Shown here: positions 467 to 53,778 of the stretch, piece by piece | Numbering within the stretch: position 1 is the stretch's first letter | Layout: each line of letters opens with the position of its first letter | NCBI GenBank assembly: GCA_003345545.1 | Contig: PRDH01000044.1 | Location: 1 to 64,000, forward strand | Direction of reading: 5' to 3' | Length of the DNA stretch: 64,000 bases | Source: Candidatus Thorarchaeota archaeon | GTDB lineage: Archaea > Asgardarchaeota > Thorarchaeia > Thorarchaeales > Thorarchaeaceae | Position numbers and translations under genes: made by a program | Notes under the pieces: model-generated | Database searches by the model: none | What the model saw: the letters and a program-made list of their open reading frames with translations, nothing else | What the model was told of the DNA's origin: nothing

Positions 467-1607
467 CTTGGCTGGTAGCCATTGGATGGCCAGGTACCTT
501 CCGTAACGCTTCAATACCGCCAACTGGGAGGACCATAACCTCCTTTGTTCCAGCATATAGACGAATTTCGTCGCCTTCCTTTATTCTAGAGCTCGGGTCC
601 AGAAGCGCTTGCGCAGAGATCTCACCCACCTTGAAATAGACTTCTATGGCACTCCCAATGTAGATGGTCCTGCTCACAGTACCATCAATCTCATTATCAG
701 ATGAGCTCGTCTTGCTAAGATGAAGATCTTCGGGACGTATCGCCGCTTTTACTGATTCGTCTGCCATAAAGGGATAGTTGAATATCGTTGTTCGTCCTGA
801 AACAATTTGCCCATTGGGGATGCGGACCTGAATAATGTCACCCACAGATTCTACCAATCCATCGATGAATGTACACTGACCTATGAAATCAGCAACAAAG
901 ACAGTCTGTGGATTAGCATAGATTTCTTTCGGCGTATCAAACTGCTGGACATATCCCTTGTCCATCACTGCAACCATATCAGAGATGCTCAAGGCTTCAT
1001 GCTGGTCGTGTGTGACGTAGACGGTTGTGATAGAGAGCTCTTTCTGGATTCGTATTATCTCTTCACGCATGTCAATTCTGAGCTTTGCATCCAGGTTGGA
1101 CAGTGGCTCGTCAAGCAGGAGTACATCAGGTTCAATGACCAAGGCTCGCGCCAGAGCTACACGTTGTTGTTGACCACCGGAAAGTTGGTGGATGTGTCTC
1201 TGTCCAAGTTCTCCCATGTGCACAAGATCCAGGGCAGCCTGAACACGTCTATCAATTGCAGCCTTTGTGTACTTCATACCATTGACGCGTTTGAGTTTAA
1301 GACCATACGCTACATTGTCTGACACAGACATGTGAGGCCAGAGTGCATAGTTTTGAAAACACATTCCCGTGTTCCTCTTATGTGGCGGCACCCCAGTTAC
1401 ATCTTTATCATCAAAGTAGATTCTGCCATGATCTGGAGCATAGAACCCAGCGATCAGTCGCAGAAGTGTTGTTTTTCCGCAACCTGAAGGACCCAGGAGT
1501 GTGGAGAGCTCTCCCTCTCTCAGGACCATGTTGACCTCATCAGTTGCTAGCACCTCACCGAAGGTTTTTCGCAGGTTCTCCAGTGTAATCTCGACCAATC
1601 CAATCAC
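444..1607 (-). CDS. ABC transporter ATP-binding subunit, Fe3+/polyamine/thiamine (FbpC/PotA) family
   Basis: Walker A GPSGCGKT, signature LSGGQQQRVALARAL, Walker B LLLDEP, H-loop VTHD, C-terminal TOBE-like region. Confidence 0.93.
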   Translation of the reverse strand: MIGLVEITLENLRKTFGEVLATDEVNMVLREGELSTLLGPSGCGKTTLLRLIAGFYAPDHGRIYFDDKDVTGVPPHKRNTGMCFQNYALWPHMSVSDNVAYGLKLKRVNGMKYTKAAIDRRVQAALDLVHMGELGQRHIHQLSGGQQQRVALARALVIEPDVLLLDEPLSNLDAKLRIDMREEIIRIQKELSITTVYVTHDQHEALSISDMVAVMDKGYVQQFDTPKEIYANPQTVFVADFIGQCTFIDGLVESVGDIIQVRIPNGQIVSGRTTIFNYPFMADESVKAAIRPEDLHLSKTSSSDNEIDGTVSRTIYIGSAIEVYFKVGEISAQALLDPSSRIKEGDEIRLYAGTKEVMVLPVGGIEALRKVPGHPMATSQASDSVNA

Positions 1608-16921: not shown

Positions 16922-17836
16922 TTAATAGGAGAGCTTCCCCTTGAAGACGATGACGCCAGTACCACTGACCTTGACTTGCTCAATGTCTTCTTTGTCGCCG
17001 TGAACTTCAACGAAGACTCTTCCTGGGCGACCCACGTGATACCCTTGCTCAACGACAATGCTAGTCACAGGGCGAGTGGGCTCGATGAAACCATAGCGAA
17101 TGAGATAGCAACCGATGCTGCCCGCTGCAGAACCAGACACGGGATCCTCGTAGACTCCGAGAGCAGGTGCGAAGGTCCGAACCTGGGCATCTGAAGTGGG
17201 TGCTCTCGTTTCCCTAGTGAAGACGCTCACAGTGACATAATCGGAGTCCTTCTGAAGCGCCTTGAGCTTGTCCCAGTCTGGCTTTATTCGATCAAGCGCT
17301 CTCATTGTTGAGAGAGGCATAATGAGGTGGGGAGTTCCGGTGCTTACTGTTTGAATCGGACTTGGTGAATGATAGTCTGCAAGCGTGAGACCCAACGCCT
17401 TGAGGTACTCCTTCGGGTCATAGGTCCTCAGGAAGACTGGCTTCCTGTGGGTAATCTGGATTTCATGTCTGCCAGTCGATTCGTTCTTGACTATCTCCAC
17501 GTCGAGAATGCCAGCTCGTGTTTCGAGGCTGACCATTGTGACATCCTTTGCTGTTTCAATCAGTCCTTCCCTAATCAGTGCATGAAACGCCGCAATAGTA
17601 GGATGACCTGAGAAGTCTATCTCGCTCTTCGGGGTCAAATACCTGAAGTAGAAATTCGCCTTATCGGACTCCATAACAAAGACCGTTTCACGCGTGTTCA
17701 TCTCGCGAGCGATTTTGGAGAGCATTTCATCGTCTAGACGATCAGCACCAAGAACGACTGAAGCAGGGTTGCCTCCGAAAGGAGTGTCTGTGAAAGCATC
17801 AACATGGAAGATATCAAGTTCGCTGCGAGGAACCAT
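16922..17836 (-). CDS. PhzF family isomerase/epimerase
   Basis: VDAFTDTPFGGNPA, ETVF, EIDFSGHPT, EDPVSGSA, EQG..GRPG. Confidence 0.9.
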   Translation of the reverse strand: MVPRSELDIFHVDAFTDTPFGGNPASVVLGADRLDDEMLSKIAREMNTRETVFVMESDKANFYFRYLTPKSEIDFSGHPTIAAFHALIREGLIETAKDVTMVSLETRAGILDVEIVKNESTGRHEIQITHRKPVFLRTYDPKEYLKALGLTLADYHSPSPIQTVSTGTPHLIMPLSTMRALDRIKPDWDKLKALQKDSDYVTVSVFTRETRAPTSDAQVRTFAPALGVYEDPVSGSAAGSIGCYLIRYGFIEPTRPVTSIVVEQGYHVGRPGRVFVEVHGDKEDIEQVKVSGTGVIVFKGKLSY

Positions 17837-17963
17837 TCAACACCATCTCCGAAGGCCCTTCTCGGAGCGTGCTAATTAATCATTGCATCTGATTTCACTG
17901 CACAATCAACCATCATCATGTGCGTCCCAAAGTGATATAGCGGAATACTCCAAATGCCACGTC

Positions 17964-19175
17964 ATGGCCATCAAGATTGTTCCTTTCTTTTCAGCACTTT
18001 CGCCCGATGGACTCAGGAGCCAGGTTCTTGATAGGATACAACAAGAGGGTGTTAGGATAGTCTCAAGCGCAGAGGAGCTCGCACCCAAGGAATCCGTCTG
18101 CATCTTCATCGGAACTGGGGGAACAGAGAATGATGTGGTTGAGTTCCTTGAAAATGCCCGCTCCGCATCTCAAATAACCATACTGAGTTATGACGAACGA
18201 AACTCGCTGCCTGCTTCAATGGAGATACGAGCTTACTTGCAGAGGAGAGGAGTTGAGGCTACGATAGTGCATGAACCTCTGAATGGGCTCCGCGAGCTTC
18301 TTGGCAGATGGGTCAAATGTTCGCAGATCATCGAGCATCTTAAGGGCAGCAGACTTGGACTTGTCGGCCAATCGTCATCTTGGCTGATTGCCTCGGATGT
18401 CATTCGCCGAAAGGTAGCCAAGAAATGGGGACTTGAGATAGTTGATATTCCAATACAGGAACTGATGGATGATTTGCCGGAAACATCCAACAATGGATTC
18501 AAGACGCGTATGGATGATTTTCAGTCTCATGCGATATGCCAGAGTGTTTCAAGCGCGGATATTGGCCGAGCTGGAGCCGTGGCACAGCGACTTGCAGAAA
18601 TCGTCAACGACGCCAAACTTGATGCTGTGACTGTTCAGTGTTTCACGCTGCTTCAAGAAACGGGCACATCAGGGTGTGTTGCTCTGTCCTCCGTCAACGA
18701 CGTGAGAGATCTAGTGGCAGGATGCGAGGGTGATATTCCTGCTACCTTCACGATGTTGCTTGCCAAGATGCTCACAGGACTGCCCTCATTCATGGCGAAT
18801 GTAGCGAGTGTGGACCTGGAGCTTAACACCGCAGTATTTGCACACTGCACAGTACCTTTGAGCATGACTGAAGGATACGAGACGACCAGCCATTTTGAAA
18901 CAGGAAAGAGTGTGGGCATTCGAGGAAGATTGCCGCTCTCTGAGGTAACAGTCTTCAAAGTCTTCGGGGAGGATTTAGGTGAGCACTGGGTTTCTAGCGG
19001 CACCATCATTGAAAACCTGGTGAATGAGAGTGGATGCAGGACTCAAATCAGAGTTGCAATGGACGAGCCTGTTGATTATTTCCTAGAGGAGTCACTGGCG
19101 AATCACCACATTATCATACTAGGAGATCATGTTGAGGTGATTGCAGAATTCTTTGAGTTCCTTCGCAGAAAGTGA
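17964..19175 (+). CDS. L-fucose/L-arabinose isomerase-like protein
   Basis: NSLPASME, CF, GCEGD, AHCTVP, SHFETG, CRTQ, LANHH. The ATG at 17964 is preferred over the TTG at 17883. Confidence 0.75.
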   Translation: MAIKIVPFFSALSPDGLRSQVLDRIQQEGVRIVSSAEELAPKESVCIFIGTGGTENDVVEFLENARSASQITILSYDERNSLPASMEIRAYLQRRGVEATIVHEPLNGLRELLGRWVKCSQIIEHLKGSRLGLVGQSSSWLIASDVIRRKVAKKWGLEIVDIPIQELMDDLPETSNNGFKTRMDDFQSHAICQSVSSADIGRAGAVAQRLAEIVNDAKLDAVTVQCFTLLQETGTSGCVALSSVNDVRDLVAGCEGDIPATFTMLLAKMLTGLPSFMANVASVDLELNTAVFAHCTVPLSMTEGYETTSHFETGKSVGIRGRLPLSEVTVFKVFGEDLGEHWVSSGTIIENLVNESGCRTQIRVAMDEPVDYFLEESLANHHIIILGDHVEVIAEFFEFLRRK

Positions 19176-19184
19176 ACAGGCATG

Positions 19185-19330
19185 ATAGTTAGAGAGAATG
19201 AGGTGGCGAGCATGCGGGAAATCGTGGTAGGAGGGGGGAGTTTCGTAATTGAGGGCATGTAACGAAAAACTAGCCCACACACTCGCCAATGTTTCTTTCC
19301 ATGGAGGTAAATCTTGCCCTTAATCCTCCG
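19185..19330 (-). ncRNA. Candidate structured small RNA (unknown family)
   Basis: 15-bp stem 19288-19274/19218-19204 with 3 G-U pairs on the minus strand, an inner hairpin, a 5' hairpin and loop-loop complementarity; BRE/TATA-like GGCAAACTTTAATAA upstream. Confidence 0.5.
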
Positions 19331-19725
19331 TGATAAGATGATAGCAGAGGTCACTTATTAAAGTTTGCCTAGGTGAAGATACTGAATTCGATGGTTTATG
19401 AAATGTTTAAGTTTTCGGCGGCATTCCCTAAATCTGCCAAGGCGACATGGAACAATGCGATAGAATTGGCGCGTATGGCATTTCGAAGGCCAGTGATTCA
19501 AGCCCCCATAGATTGGTCGGTCTATTTGTTAAGGCGTTCACGTGTCACTTTAATGTTGTATAACTGTCAAAGAAGCCACCATATGCAACGATGCACTCCA
19601 GCAGAGCAATGTTTCGAGGGGAATGTTTCACGCTATGGTGCGTGATTCTTCTATTGACCACTCAGAAGAAAAGAGGAGGAGTGCATCACTTGGCTGAGTA
19701 GCTGCAACACCTTTGAAGCATGATC

Positions 19726-21372
19726 TCACTGGCCGGTCTTGTAGGGTTTGCTGATGCTTTCCTCTTCCACTTGAGTTGGTCTGTGGCCTTTGCGCCACTC
19801 CTCGATAGGCCTTGAGAACTTCTCCTCCACTCGTGACCTATGAATTGTGTTCATGGTACAGAATGGAATGATTCTGCCATCGGGTACTGCGTAGTTGACA
19901 TCACAGTGCTGTACGCGCTCAAGATCGAAGTTGTAAGGGTCTTGAAAGTGCATTATTCCAAGCATGATCACGCGTCGCATGAATTTGGCAAGTGAGTCAT
20001 AGTCTCCACGTTTGAGAAATGCGCTGAGCAAGTCCTTGAGAATTCCCTTCTTCTTGATATGACGAACACCAGCAGCCAGCTTTGCCTTTGCACGTGTACT
20101 GGCACCGGCCTTCTGATCAGCATAGAGATTAGATATCTCTTCTAAGAGAACCAGGAAACTGTCAACATCGATGACCTGAGTGATTGGCTTGTAGCTGCCG
20201 TCTTCGTCGATGAAGATGAAAGTGGACATACCGCAGGCAAAGTGCGAACTGAGCTCCAGCTCAGGGCCACCCTTGATCATACCGAGGGCACGACCAACTG
20301 GCATCATCGAGGGGACCGGATACCAGTCGCTCGCAGGAATCCTGCCGCCAGTCTGCTTTTCGATGAGGTGGATGACATCAGGTATTGTGATGCGCATCTG
20401 ATGGCGAGCTTTGTGGTCGATTCGACCAGTAATGCTCACTGGCTGAAAATTCACGCACCGAATAACGTCACGATTGTCTACTGCAAACTGGACAATATCA
20501 CCTAGTTGGTCATCATTGACGCCACGCACAACCGTGGGAACTAGGACAAGTGACTCCATGCCAATCTCACGTGCATTCTGAATAGCCTGCTTCTTGAGTG
20601 GCAACAAGTCATTTCCTCTAGCTGCAAGATAAGGACCGGGAGTGACACCATCGAACTGCATATAGATGGTTGAGAGACCCGCATTACGCAGTTCCTGTAA
20701 GTACTCCTTGCTCTTTCCAATTCGAATCACGTTACTCGCAATCTGGACATGCCTGAAACCAAGCTGCTTTGCCCATTTGATGTACTGCGGAAGATTCTTG
20801 CTTACAGTCGGTTCACCGCCAGCAAACTGGACAGCCGGGGCTGGAACAGGCAAATTGCTTCGCAGGTTCTTGAGCATTTCAAAGACCTCCTGCGGGTCGG
20901 GCTCATAGATATCGCCACCTTCTGCCGCAACTGCAAAGCAGATCGGACATCGCAGATTACACCGGTTGGTGACGTCTATTAGCGCTAGAGCTGTATGTGA
21001 TTTGTGCTCTGGACATTGACCACAGTCCTCTGGGCAACCTTTCACGGTTTCCGTTCGAGGATTATCCAGCCCTACCGACTTGTACCACCAAGTCTGAGCT
21101 TTCTTGAATAGTTCAACATCGCCCCAATAAACATCAATGAACTCCCCGTGTTTCTCACAGGTCTTCTTGTACATTACCTTGCCGTTTTCCTCGTATAGAG
21201 TTGCATCGATGACATGAACTTCGTCATCAGTAAGCAAACACTCTGGACAAATGGATTGAGTTGTATAGGGGAGCTCCCTTACAGGATACTTCTGAACATG
21301 ATACCTTGAGAGGTCACTTTCCGTGTGCTTAACTGGCGTCTCAGGTACCGGTTTTACATCATCTGTGGCCAT
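19726..21372 (-). CDS. tes: Tetraether lipid synthase (Tes / GDGT-MAS; MJ0619-like radical SAM)
   Basis: N-terminal CPEC...CEKH, CPEDCGQCPEH, radical SAM motif CNLRCPIC, GGEPT, HFACG, C-terminal HFQDPYNFDLERVQHC...GRIIPFC. Confidence 0.88.
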   Translation of the reverse strand: MATDDVKPVPETPVKHTESDLSRYHVQKYPVRELPYTTQSICPECLLTDDEVHVIDATLYEENGKVMYKKTCEKHGEFIDVYWGDVELFKKAQTWWYKSVGLDNPRTETVKGCPEDCGQCPEHKSHTALALIDVTNRCNLRCPICFAVAAEGGDIYEPDPQEVFEMLKNLRSNLPVPAPAVQFAGGEPTVSKNLPQYIKWAKQLGFRHVQIASNVIRIGKSKEYLQELRNAGLSTIYMQFDGVTPGPYLAARGNDLLPLKKQAIQNAREIGMESLVLVPTVVRGVNDDQLGDIVQFAVDNRDVIRCVNFQPVSITGRIDHKARHQMRITIPDVIHLIEKQTGGRIPASDWYPVPSMMPVGRALGMIKGGPELELSSHFACGMSTFIFIDEDGSYKPITQVIDVDSFLVLLEEISNLYADQKAGASTRAKAKLAAGVRHIKKKGILKDLLSAFLKRGDYDSLAKFMRRVIMLGIMHFQDPYNFDLERVQHCDVNYAVPDGRIIPFCTMNTIHRSRVEEKFSRPIEEWRKGHRPTQVEEESISKPYKTGQ

Positions 21373-31138: not shown

Positions 31139-31214
31139 TGGTAGCCCCGCCAGGATTCGAACCTAGGTCAGACGGGCCAGGGCCGCCTATGCTTGACCAC
31201 TACACCACGGGGCT
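31139..31214 (-). tRNA. tRNA-Gln (anticodon CUG), intronless, CCA encoded
   Basis: AGCCCCG/CGGGGCT acceptor stem with A1-U72, D arm GTGT/GCAT, anticodon arm GGCGG-CCCTGGC-CCGTC, T arm CTAGG-TTCGAAT-CCTGG, ACCA end. Confidence 0.95.
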
Positions 31215-50268: not shown

Positions 50269-52167
50269 CTATCTCTTGTCTTCGCCGGAGTCAACAGAAT
50301 CTAACAGACGATCTAGCTCGTCGAGCGTCTCATCATCGATAGGCAGGTCTTTTTTCTTTTCGTTGTCATCCTTGGACCCTTCAGACTTGGCTCCGCCCGC
50401 AGTGAGATCCAAAGGACCTAGAATCGATTCAAGCTCCTTGAGAGACTCTTCATCAATCTCGAAGCGAGTTTCCGACTCGCCTCGAGTGGAAACGGCTTCA
50501 TCGCTCTTGAATGCCTCAAGAGCCTTATCGATCTCAGTATGCGGAACAAGATCAATCTCTGCAGAGATGAAATCATCGGCCTGGAGTGCCTCGAAGATAA
50601 TATCCTTAGCCAATTTGACATCTCCATTGTCCTCTTCGATGACGGGCTCAATAGTAGGCACATCCTCTGCTGGCTCTGTTTCCTTGGGAGTATCAATTGT
50701 TGGTGAAGGTGCCACTTCCTCGATTTCAGAGGAGATTTCAGAGCGTTCCATGGAGAGCTCCAATTCCTCGAGGAGCATGGGTTTGGGCACTCTCTCTTCG
50801 GTCGGTTCAGATTCATTCTGAGCAACTGCATCCTCAAGAGCCTCAATGGACTCTGTTGTGTCACGCAATGCTCGGTCTTCTATGAGTTCAGACTCACGAT
50901 GTATCAATTGCTCATCCGAGAATTCAACATCAAGAGCTTGTGATTCCATTGCTTCTCCGGGTTCTGAGATAGGGATGTCTGCTTCCTCTTCTTTTGGCTC
51001 TGCAGTCAAAGCCACATCTGACTGCTCTGATGTTGCGGTTTCTTCCTCTTCTGCTTCATCAATGGATCCTTCGTCAACCTCTTCGATGACTTCCTCTACG
51101 ACCTCATAGTCGTCGGGATTCTCGACAACATGACCACTCTCATCAACTAAGACCTCCTCAACGACCTCAATGGCTTCATACTCACCCTCTTCGCCGGCTT
51201 CTTTGAGTTCTGCGGCCTCGCGCCTCTGAGCCATTGCATCGGTTTCTGCGATTGCCTCTTCAGTCGCTGTAGCCGTAAACTTCAGCAGCTCTGATGCAGG
51301 AAGGTCTGGCAGTGCCACTCCAACATATTGAGCCGCAGCAGTCATTAGTATCCCGAGCATCTCGTCGCGTCTTGCTTTGTCGATTGCTACCATTGGATAG
51401 GTAGGAATTCCAAGAATCTTCTGCACGACTTCGGGCCTCATGGCGTTTGGCTTGTCCTGTTTGTTGGCCAGAGCAAAGACAGGGACCTTGGGAGCATCTC
51501 GTTTGATGAGCTTGAGAATGTCCTTACTGATTATGACGTTACGAAGGGCAGAGTCACAGACTAGGAATATCACATCCGCTCCATGGAAATAGAACCGCCA
51601 CAGCATTCGAAAACGTTCCTGTCCCGCAAAATCCCAGAGGACAAGGCTATAGTTCCCGAATCTGATGTTCTCAACTGTTTCGAGATTGAGTGCAATGGTT
51701 GGCACGTACTGCAGTGGGGGTGTGTCACCAAGCAGAAGATGGAGTGTCGTGGTCTTTCCTACACCACCTTCGCCCACAAGAGCAATTTTGAGTCGAGTAG
51801 TCACTGATGGTTCGATAATCTTCGCATACCTTTCGCGGATTGATTCGAAGCCAAACTTTGCGAGGTCCTTCCTCAACGTCTTTGAAGCAGCCGCGACCTT
51901 GTCAAATATGGCACTTTCACTCTCGCCCTTGTCTGTAACAAATAGAAGGAGTATGTCTGAGACTGGTTCTGCTCCATGGAACTTGTGTTCACCAATAACG
52001 AGTGCCAGATTGTTGAGATCAGTTTCGTCGCTCCCTTCGGAGAGCAGTTCCTCCCTAGTCTTGACATACTCTTCAAGAGTCTCTTGCGACACCTCCACGG
52101 GCCAATACCTGGTTGATGCAAGCACTCTTCTTGTCGAGAGTCGTATAAGGAAGGTGTTGTGAATCAA
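50269..52167 (-). CDS. Longin-like domain, Arf/Rab-like small GTPase and long acidic tail
   Basis: N-terminal MIHNTFLI...LLLFVTD; GEGGVGKT, YVPTI, WDFAGQERF, NKQD; more than 300 aa of E/D-rich C-terminus. Confidence 0.85.
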   Translation of the reverse strand: MIHNTFLIRLSTRRVLASTRYWPVEVSQETLEEYVKTREELLSEGSDETDLNNLALVIGEHKFHGAEPVSDILLLFVTDKGESESAIFDKVAAASKTLRKDLAKFGFESIRERYAKIIEPSVTTRLKIALVGEGGVGKTTTLHLLLGDTPPLQYVPTIALNLETVENIRFGNYSLVLWDFAGQERFRMLWRFYFHGADVIFLVCDSALRNVIISKDILKLIKRDAPKVPVFALANKQDKPNAMRPEVVQKILGIPTYPMVAIDKARRDEMLGILMTAAAQYVGVALPDLPASELLKFTATATEEAIAETDAMAQRREAAELKEAGEEGEYEAIEVVEEVLVDESGHVVENPDDYEVVEEVIEEVDEGSIDEAEEEETATSEQSDVALTAEPKEEEADIPISEPGEAMESQALDVEFSDEQLIHRESELIEDRALRDTTESIEALEDAVAQNESEPTEERVPKPMLLEELELSMERSEISSEIEEVAPSPTIDTPKETEPAEDVPTIEPVIEEDNGDVKLAKDIIFEALQADDFISAEIDLVPHTEIDKALEAFKSDEAVSTRGESETRFEIDEESLKELESILGPLDLTAGGAKSEGSKDDNEKKKDLPIDDETLDELDRLLDSVDSGEDKR

Positions 52168-52294
52168 GGCTACCTCACCAGTGTACGTAGTGGTTTGTGT
52201 GGTATGCTAGGGAAGCTCACGCAACATGAAGTAAGGTAGTATTGTCTTGATTAACTTGTTTTGTGTGTGTACAACTACAATATGCAGCATGACA

Positions 52295-52492
52295 AGGTTA
52301 GATGTTGGGGTTCAAAGAACCCCGAACATCCGTTGGAGCGTGTTCTTCGACCGGGGGCGGTAAAATTCGTTTATGCGCAAGAACAGTGCAGTAATCACTG
52401 CAATTAGGGACTAGAACTCGTGGGACCGTGTATTGCGAGTTCCTGACGGGGGAAGACCGCCACCCGTTTGAAGTTCACACTACAGCAGACCT
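52295..52492 (+). ncRNA. Candidate ~200-nt multi-helix ncRNA (unknown family)
   Basis: 13-bp hairpin 52301-52330; long interrupted stem 52332-52361/52456-52486 enclosing hairpins 52387-52402 and 52414-52442; G-U pairs favour the plus strand. Confidence 0.55.
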
Positions 52493-52568
52493 CGAATCGC
52501 CATAAGAAGCTTTCTGGTTCACCAAAAAAGGATAGTTATTTTCATTTTGTTGAATCGAGGTGTGATAG

Positions 52569-52604
52569 GTCTTTTTTCTTGTAATATTCATAAGAAAAAA
52601 AGAC
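52569..52604. terminator. AT-rich inverted repeat, possible bidirectional terminator
   Basis: gtcttttttctt...aagaaaaaaagac gives T-tracts on both strands, between the candidate ncRNA (+) and the convergent gene (-). Confidence 0.55.
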
Positions 52605-52638
52605 ACAATTGTATGATACGGAACATGATGATTGTCAA

Positions 52639-53778
52639 TCAGCGGGGGAAGTTGTCTCGCAGAAGACGAAGGTGTTGATGGACCATCTCCATTGCCTTTG
52701 GATCATCAGGAGTCTTTTCGAGATCCGTCACCAGCGTCTGCAAGAAATACTCGGGGAAGAATAGTCTTACACGAATGTCATTAAGCAGGAATAGCCACTT
52801 GTCATATTCGCCTGAGGCACCCTTTCTGCGTTTTTCTGCGACTACCCTGAACTTCTTGAGGGTTTGGATTGCCTCCTTAAGCTCCTTCGGAGGAATGCCC
52901 AGCGTGGCCTCCAGTTCAGAGATATTTGCCGGGCGTCTTCTGAGTTCGCTGAGTGTATCATAACAGTCAGGATCTGCCAGGACTTGAGCGACTGATACAG
53001 TGTCTTCAGGGGTCTTTTGCCACTCCGTCAGGAATTCCAATACTTCTGACTTATACTCCGCCGCAAGCTCAGGATCCAAAACTCCACTAGCGGACTCCAT
53101 CGCCACGAGGGGCGGGGCTCTGAAGATTTCAAGGTCCTTTATCATGAAGACACACGTTCGACCAATCTCATCGACCCATTCCGTCTTTACTAGACCAAGT
53201 TCCTCAAAGGGGGCGATGATGGAGTCAATACTAACACTCGGAAGACCTGTGACCATCTTCAACCATTCTTCAAGTTCTTCTTTTGAGATACCACCTTTCC
53301 AGAGCTTGGGAAATACAGCCCGAGAAACCTCATCAGAGAACAATCGTGCCAGACGAGACTCATCAGTCATCCCAGCAAGTCTGATGATACGTCGGTATGT
53401 GTTGTCTAGCTCATCCTGAAGCTCTGCATCAGTCAATGCAACGACAGCATTTGTCAGAGGAGTCACAATCGACGTGATAGCAGCCTCATACATCTTCGGG
53501 TCTTCCGAAGGCGTCAGCAAAAGGGATACACAGTATTGCTCTTCCTCTCTCACTATTCCAGTATAATACGAAGCAACACCATATTCCTCACCGCCAATTC
53601 GGATACTGAGTGATGAAAATCCGGCTGTGGCATCACCCATGGCGTGAGACGTGAAGATACGCATTATCTCTGTATTAAGATCTTCACGGTAGTAGTCAGC
53701 AAAATCTGCAGGTACCTTCGCCTTCAGAACTGCTCCTATCTTTGAGTCCCAATCTATAAGCAGCATCGCTACGGGCAT
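52639..53778 (-). CDS. uDENN/longin-like protein with C-terminal winged helices
   Basis: N-terminus MPVAMLLIDWDSKIGAVLKAKVP...VASYY...VSLLL...EDP; wHTH-like ISELEATLGIPPKELKEAIQTLKKFRVV. The ATG at 53778 is preferred. Confidence 0.65.
   Translation of the reverse strand: MPVAMLLIDWDSKIGAVLKAKVPADFADYYREDLNTEIMRIFTSHAMGDATAGFSSLSIRIGGEEYGVASYYTGIVREEEQYCVSLLLTPSEDPKMYEAAITSIVTPLTNAVVALTDAELQDELDNTYRRIIRLAGMTDESRLARLFSDEVSRAVFPKLWKGGISKEELEEWLKMVTGLPSVSIDSIIAPFEELGLVKTEWVDEIGRTCVFMIKDLEIFRAPPLVAMESASGVLDPELAAEYKSEVLEFLTEWQKTPEDTVSVAQVLADPDCYDTLSELRRRPANISELEATLGIPPKELKEAIQTLKKFRVVAEKRRKGASGEYDKWLFLLNDIRVRLFFPEYFLQTLVTDLEKTPDDPKAMEMVHQHLRLLRDNFPR

Follow-up and report, generated by a model that had tools for sequence, protein, structure and literature searches.

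The minus strand of positions 19185–19369 almost certainly carries a real structured RNA gene within the window, the whole 64,000-nucleotide (nt) stretch of Thorarchaeota DNA analysed here. The RNA is about 140 nt long, is non-coding and has its own promoter, and it belongs to a family that is uncatalogued, multi-copy and, in the collections searched, restricted to Thorarchaeota. The decisive evidence beyond chance is comparative and lies in the stem that closes the RNA, which covaries among its copies. To our knowledge, RNA-based regulation is almost wholly uncharted in Asgard archaea, the prokaryotes most closely related to eukaryotes, and a full-text literature search found no paper on such an RNA or on small RNAs of this group. 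Within its order the family is spread as widely as a housekeeping RNA; Rfam lacks it, and genomes hold it in multiple copies, all of which would make it an obvious starting model for studying post-transcriptional control in Asgard archaea.

Read on the minus strand, every element that the initial annotation had listed (a BRE/TATA promoter, a 5′ hairpin, a 15-bp stem with three G–U pairs, an inner hairpin and an unpaired tract) is present. The archaeal promoter lies at 19355–19369 and consists of a BRE-like GGCAAAC and the TATA box TTTAATAA (19362–19355); it was recognized from its sequence, which recurs in one type of copy (type A, described below). Transcription would start about 5–10 nt upstream of the 5′ hairpin, at about 19335. 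This hairpin (hairpin 1, 19303–19329) appears in the minimum-free-energy fold, in which GGAGG (19329–19325), a Shine–Dalgarno (SD)-like 5′ arm that is also complementary to the C-rich tract of the core, pairs with CCUCC (19307–19303) to close a loop containing AGGGCA (19320–19315). An A-rich linker, AUGGAAAGAAACAU (19289–19302), is single-stranded in the fold and leads into the closing stem P1, in which the 5′ strand UGGCGAGUGUGUGGG (19274–19288) pairs with the 3′ strand CCCGCAUGCUCGCCA (19218–19204). P1 has 15 bp in the window, and its three non-Watson–Crick pairs are all G–U, equivalent to A–C mismatches on the plus strand. It encloses the inner hairpin P2 (19241–19267; UUUCGU at 19267–19262 pairs with ACGAAA at 19246–19241), whose 15-nt loop holds a motif that we call C1, AUGCCCUCA (19258–19250, with UGCCCU at 19257–19252), and a single-stranded C-rich tract that we call C2, CUCCCCCCUCCUACC (19226–19240), which is invariant across the order. 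A pyrimidine-rich 3′ tail beginning CCUCAUUCUCUCU follows at 19185–19203. The element sits in a 550-bp spacer with convergent genes on either side, a 430-amino-acid (aa) ORF on the plus strand (end at 19175) and a 548-aa radical-SAM gene on the minus strand (end at 19726). As the initial annotation had observed, no minus-strand gene comes directly after the element.

The proposal that this is a stand-alone, unannotated structured RNA of the minus strand is borne out by folding and by comparison. The fold z-score is −2.73 on the minus strand, a value equalled by 3 of 200 shuffles, and −0.51 on the plus strand; in the predicted ensemble C2 is 97% unpaired and the inner loop with C1 is 84% unpaired. 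In an alignment of 34 copies, 96% of the cells of the closing stem form standard pairs, and covariation is strong, with 11 of the 14 pairs changed on both sides in a compensatory way. None of 500 shuffles did as well, and structures slid by 1–3 columns score far lower. The two strands of the stem read GGCGAGUGUGUGGG/CCCGCAUGCUCGCC in the window, GGCGACCGCACAGG/CCUGUGUGGUCGCC in the copy on contig C74 and GGUGAAGGGUUGGG/CCCAACCCUCACC in the order's second family, and are complementary in each. G–U pairs are frequent in the closing stems of the 34 copies, and because they would be A–C mismatches on the other strand, the structure under selection is that of a minus-strand RNA. The inner 6-bp stem is invariant in the same 34 copies and never covaries, and although the length of the P2 loop differs among the types of copy, the stem ends and C1 are kept.

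Several other kinds of gene were considered for this place and rejected. The 75-aa ORF that overlaps the element and the 90-aa ORF beside it, which the initial annotation had allowed might prove to be conserved proteins, have no Pfam family, and orthologs differ by 1-nt indels inside the element, a kind of change that a conserved protein would not withstand. A conserved leader micro-ORF ending at the UAG after the stem was dismissed by inspection, since only some of the copies have it in frame. ARAGORN finds no tRNA- or tmRNA-like gene in 18900–19800, and mimicry of a tRNA acceptor stem does not fit because the ACC after the stem runs into a pyrimidine tail (ACCUUC, ACCUCA, ACCUCC) and not into CCA. 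The element has no boxes of a box C/D or H/ACA guide RNA, and no Rfam snoRNA match falls on it. At gathering thresholds, Rfam 15 matches the whole window only at a tRNA (31142–31214). When the region 19000–19900 was searched at E values up to 10, the single hit was an sR7 box C/D-like match on the other strand and outside the element (19638–19699, plus strand; 13 bits, E = 3.2); it overlies the region of the radical-SAM 3′ end and is most likely due to chance. Rfam searches of the loci of the other copies gave only a tRNA-Sec (57.5 bits; L076:2727–2813, minus strand), about 1.2 kb from the copy on contig C12 and probably there by coincidence.

The genome of the window contains four copies, the other three on contigs C74, C12 and C17; this multi-copy nature had been missed by the initial annotation. 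The core of the RNA was found in all 24 genomes sampled from the genus. With the covariance model R1 as the search model for the family, 86 of the 87 genomes of the order matched, covering 17 of 17 genera with 1–11 copies per genome, and the sole miss is a 52%-complete bin of 0.6 Mb. The same model gave zero matches in 123 genomes of other sampled Asgard families. A search with the exact composite motif in one genome for each of 185,579 prokaryotic species returned at least 118 stretches, and the records listed are titled Thorarchaeota or Promethearchaeota or are untyped archaeal metagenome-assembled genomes (MAGs), apart from one labelled Hermodarchaeota. That record (L147; JBHLLF010000039.1) may reflect an issue of labelling or binning, or may hint at a wider range.

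A copy number that runs from 1 to 11, together with the many copies at contig ends, might suggest repeated DNA, either MITE-like or an integration site, and one could also suppose that the element is a small protein gene (the 75-aa ORF); we regard these readings together as so improbable as to be close to negligible. Terminal inverted repeats would be conserved in sequence, whereas the stems here change yet stay complementary and have G–U pairs on one strand only, and a mobile repeat was rejected on this covariation. Orthologous positions and promoters are conserved, and the viral contigs searched contain no member of the family, which led us to reject a viral origin as well. As to the small protein, the 1-nt indels break the frame of the 75-aa ORF. 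Contigs end at or near the core edges in several assemblies (G002:C13:1–68, G004:C7:1–68, G004:C122:9258–9316 and G079:C203:5379–5437, corresponding to model positions 11–79 or 16–74), and these cuts look like assembly breaks at a repeat with no biological boundary behind them. The family also serves as a useful marker, accounting for unannotated ‘ORFs’ and for some of the assembly breaks seen in Thorarchaeota MAGs.

Four paralog types can be distinguished by leader, promoter and context. Type A, to which the window copy belongs, has the promoter AAACTTTAATAAG with its TATA box 72–80 nt before the stem, followed by the 5′ hairpin and the A-rich linker; an A-rich stretch before the closing stem is found in types A and D. 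The promoter noted by the initial annotation is a feature of the type, with AAAC-TTTAATA(A/G) at this fixed distance from the closing stem in about 50 orthologous type-A copies from many genera. Type B (the copies on C74 and C12) has the promoter ATTTATTAGGAAGG, a TATA box about 53 nt before the stem and a leader containing GAGUAGGAG. Type C (the copy on C17) has the promoter GCTTAATAGG and a two-part stem, and its TATA box lies about 29 nt before the stem, which puts the predicted start of the transcript at the stem itself. The TATA boxes of types A–C thus stand at fixed, type-specific distances. Type D is represented by no copy in this genome, lacks a promoter of its own and lies close behind a 122–130-aa gene, starting about 12 nt from its stop codon. 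This gene, seen with the type-D copy at L028:1121–1595 and L042:1604–2102, is conserved, has no Pfam family, encodes a protein ending in ...NDVHGHV... and follows the gene for a leucine-rich-repeat (LRR) protein.

We clustered the flanking ORFs of 109 loci and found recurrent neighbours that invite a cis-acting interpretation, in which the element would be a leader or riboswitch of phzF or a 3′-UTR stability or termination element of the upstream gene. Type A lies behind the same radical-SAM gene (with an HMPTM-type zinc ribbon) in 49 of 68 loci, and phzF is the next gene on the same strand in 34 of the 68, from as near as 67–80 nt. In the window this order (radical-SAM gene, type-A RNA, phzF, all on one strand) spans 16922–21372, and it is conserved in many genera. 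The start of type D so soon after a stop codon and the combination of a covarying closing stem with an invariant core, which is also a riboswitch pattern, point the same way. A leader or riboswitch, however, belongs to the 5′ UTR of the gene that it regulates and is not separated from that gene by a promoter, and here either a convergent gene or the phzF TATA box follows the RNA. This box, TTAATTAGC, is found about 45 nt before the phzF ATG at every spacing and in every genome looked at (17880–17870, minus strand, in the window), and on the strength of this conserved promoter the phzF leader was rejected. In the window the RNA has stayed intact even though a 430-aa gene without a Pfam family (17883–19175, plus strand) has been inserted downstream of it and keeps it 1.4 kb from phzF. 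The short 5′ UTR of the window phzF has a hairpin of its own after the TATA box, CUCCGAGAAGGGCCUUCGGAG. Types B and C have other neighbours: 16 of 19 type-C loci have a PAS histidine-kinase gene just ahead of the RNA, and in the genome of the window (L077; G000 contig C17, about 50885–53455) the next gene starts about 40 nt after the type-C copy. No gene consistently adjoins all paralog types. Given their own promoters and conserved sites, the RNA genes of types A–C are separate transcription units and not leaders of the next gene, and we consider a cis-acting role quite improbable.

The part of the RNA that stays constant behind these different leaders is a core of about 50 nt that is almost invariant, comprising C1 in its hairpin loop, C2 as the single strand ACUCCCCCCUCCUACC, and short flanks. 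C1 and C2 are kept even where the scaffold has been rebuilt (L123, L127) or interrupted by long insertions (L121, copy 1), which makes these two motifs the conserved functional parts and the stems devices for presenting them. The L121 copy (1387–1537, minus strand) has two insertions in the inner hairpin, of about 31 and 25 nt and each capable of forming a hairpin, and retains AUGCCCUCA and the C-rich tract; the L127 copy has an extra CCCGC/GCGGG hairpin. Inspection by eye revealed no canonical bulge–helix–bulge motif of tRNA-type introns in these copies. Beyond the closing stem, the 97 copies compared continue with ACC, which leads into a run of 78% pyrimidine (ACCUUC, ACCUCA, ACCCUC). The complete CCUCC is present in 10 of these 97 tails; some genera read ACCUCCUAA, which is identical to the end of 16S rRNA, and the window copy reads ACCUCAUUC. 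We take this stretch for the probable termination region; it may also be a third CU-rich motif.

The invariance of the whole core of about 50 nt, inner stem included, is explained by protein binding or by a tertiary fold no less well than by seed pairing, and both have to be weighed. The RNA could be a protein-binding sponge or ribonucleoprotein scaffold whose core is recognized by an SmAP or KH-type C-rich-binding protein, through parts that include the U-run AGUUUUUCG and the CCCUC motifs, with the protein being titrated or guided. All 17 genera share the invariant core in its entirety, the inner stem shows no covariation whereas the closing stem covaries freely, CCCUC occurs in both C1 and C2, and the presence of several copies per genome is typical of sponge RNAs of the CsrB/RsmZ type. 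This reading nevertheless comes without a candidate protein or a gene that adjoins every paralog type, and the identity of the motif with the 16S tail points instead to RNA–RNA pairing; we judge it unlikely, though it deserves more weight than any other alternative discussed here. Very improbable, in our view, is a self-cleaving ribozyme or ligand-binding RNA of a new class with the core as its tertiary fold. Extreme conservation of the core inside a covarying closing stem would suit such an RNA, as would a leader complementary to the core, which makes pseudoknots possible. But no Rfam family appears even at E values up to 10, the two conserved unpaired segments are both C-rich and unable to pair together, leaderless copies (type C and the second family) keep the core, and in some rebuilt scaffolds only C1 and C2 persist.

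The reading that we prefer, and to which we give about an even chance of being right, is that of a trans-acting, anti-SD-like small RNA (sRNA) that pairs with the ribosome-binding sites of mRNAs. The 14–15-bp covarying stem clamps the invariant core so that C1 and C2 are exposed, with the CU-rich 3′ tail after the stem, and the exposed motifs imitate the 3′ end of 16S rRNA. They would then pair in trans with purine-rich ribosome-binding sites (GGAGG or UAGGAGG) and block or modulate the initiation of translation, as do the cuckoo/CcsR, RsaE and LhrC RNAs and Methanosarcina sRNA154 and sRNA41. In type A, the SD-like arm has two potential partners, the C-rich arm of its own hairpin and the C-tract, and such pairing might, speculatively, mask the motifs. 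That the same motifs stand behind different promoters or a small gene suggests one regulatory output with several inputs.

The initial annotation had described the exposed C-rich tract as anti-SD-like, and this description holds in the genome concerned. Its 16S rRNA 3′ end reads ...GGAUCACCUCCUAAG (ending ...CACCUCCUAAG) and has CCUCCUA in common with C2. An SD-like 4-mer is found at −20 to −4 of 43% of crude gene starts against a background of 18%, with a GGAGG peak at −16 to −7, so the genome uses SD sites. C2 is an unpaired motif complementary to this organism's SD consensus, as in the anti-SD class of sRNAs, and a model SD extended to GGUAGGAGG would bind C2 with −19.1 kcal/mol, compared with −11.2 kcal/mol for the 16S tail. 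The same likeness could be read in another way, with the RNA as a decoy that copies the 16S 3′ end, in the form of a helix and the single-stranded ACCUCC(U) behind it, and competes for initiation factors or for Nob1/Dim2-type maturation factors handling the small-subunit 3′ end or the SD/anti-SD helix. CCUCCUA is indeed present in the 16S tail as well as in C2, and the ACC and pyrimidine tail equals the 16S end in the genera noted above; against this, the full CCUCC is confined to so few tails, that of the window copy not among them, that we hold a decoy to be improbable.

Individual mRNA partners did not stand out in the searches made for the anti-SD-like sRNA. Searching the genome for exact or near-exact complements of the 17-nt C-tract returned only the antisense of the copies themselves, and k-mer counts put complements of the tract at about the expected frequency. 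TGAGGGCA(T) is about twofold enriched in the genome, which we ascribe to GCC-CUC codons in coding sequence. When duplex energies were computed for about 19,000 candidate start regions, no convincing target emerged. The top match, a G-run (RGGGR) on contig C74, was rejected; it falls within a coding run, and it was compared with a single relative, which is 95% identical. Sites with TGGTAGGAGG in front of genes are few, two alone preceding long ORFs, and a two-part pattern of an SD with GGGCAU or GAGGGC gave 65 matches, mostly intragenic and with nothing enriched.

The leader of type A bears on how such motifs might be controlled. The 5′ hairpin is specific to this type and absent from types C and D and from the second family. 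Most type-A leaders fold into it, with a stem sequence that differs by clade, and the 5′ arm in every case repeats part of the exact complement of C2 (GUGGUAGGAGGGGGGAG): GGAGG or GGAGGG, GUAGGA, GGUAGG, UGGUAGGA, GUGGUAG, or GGUGGG with a G–U pair. At least six contiguous bases complementary to the C-tract are found in about two-thirds of 51 leaders, against a rough random expectation of about 12%. Compared with composition-matched shuffles the enrichment is modest (mean 5.5 versus 4.5 nt; 15 of 51 at P ≤ 0.05), and leader:core duplex energies have a mean z of −1.55 over 64 copies; the copies in all these figures are related to one another and are not independent tests. The switch that the initial annotation had envisaged, between GGAGG and the CCUCC of the tract, finds support in a family-wide complementarity of the leader, whereas the pairing itself is a prediction. 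Pairing of the leader with the C-tract, which would form a pseudoknot across the closing stem, and the self-masking that would result are plausible from the sequences.

The kissing loop proposed between AGGGCA and UGCCCU fares less evenly. The 6-nt match is exact in the window, with a chance of about 3% for loops of this size by our own arithmetic, and most of the genus has retained a hairpin-1 loop with GGGCA(U), the complement of C1; beyond the genus the loop has changed, and other genera have GAGGG or UGGGA in it, which still match the CCCUC of C1 or C2. The partner loop, C1, is invariant in all copies, as is the core. Judged from these sequences, a kissing loop is weakly supported. Calculated duplex energies in the window are −10.6 kcal/mol for the loop–loop contact and −9.9 kcal/mol for GGAGG:CCUCC, against −8 kcal/mol for hairpin 1 itself, which makes a closed, pseudoknotted form energetically plausible.

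An extension of these ideas, which we put forward tentatively and think rather unlikely, is that the RNA is a self-masked mimic of the SD/anti-SD interaction, alternating between a closed form (the leader:core pseudoknot plus the loop–loop contact) and an open form to act as a global, condition-dependent brake. Two or three sites in the core would stand in for the end of 16S rRNA. SD-led mRNAs would be titrated by the open form, or else 30S subunits by the leader, and each paralog would bring its own signal to a common brake, for example the type-C copy behind the PAS histidine-kinase gene. If this were true, Thorarchaeota would own a global, condition-dependent brake on SD-dependent translation.

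Set beside known RNAs, the family has its closest counterparts in organisation among the cuckoo RNAs or CcsR of Alphaproteobacteria (RSs0680a–d, SmelC397/ar14), which consist of 2–4 adjacent hairpins, each with CCUCCUCCC in its loop (PMC4615179). As in those RNAs, several siblings per genome present an invariant CU-rich, anti-SD-like motif on variable stems (PMC4615179). Some cuckoo copies are co-transcribed behind a small gene, with which type D may be compared. The resemblance in siblings and small gene is one of organisation only; the cuckoo RNAs are bacterial and have no sequence relationship to the Thorarchaeota RNA, which in place of adjacent hairpins has an end-to-end stem enclosing one hairpin loop (AUGCCCUCA) and a long single strand (CUCCCCCCUCCUACC). 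No cuckoo/ar14 model matches the region, to the extent that such models are in Rfam. RsaE/RoxS (Rfam RF01820) and LhrC of Bacillota also pair with SD regions through repeated unpaired C-rich motifs, and the LhrC sRNAs, like the RNAs described here, are multi-copy siblings. The repeated unpaired C-rich motifs are shared, but domain of life, motif and architecture are different, there is no Rfam match, and the targets of RsaE/RoxS and LhrC are known. Among archaea, sRNA154 and sRNA41 of Methanosarcina mazei are intergenic, lineage-conserved RNAs whose anti-RBS loops mask ribosome-binding sites (PMC5867862). The Thorarchaeota RNA resembles them, in a comparison made by description only, in being archaeal, intergenic and conserved within a lineage and in having anti-RBS-like sequences; they are single-copy, Methanosarcina-specific and experimentally validated, whereas the Thorarchaeota family is multi-copy and has a clamp stem and, in type A, an SD-like leader. 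By analogy, the family most probably works like these CU-rich anti-SD sRNAs while being a member of none of their families, and if the anti-SD reading is true, sibling sRNAs imitating the docking sequence of the ribosome would have arisen independently in Bacteria and Archaea.
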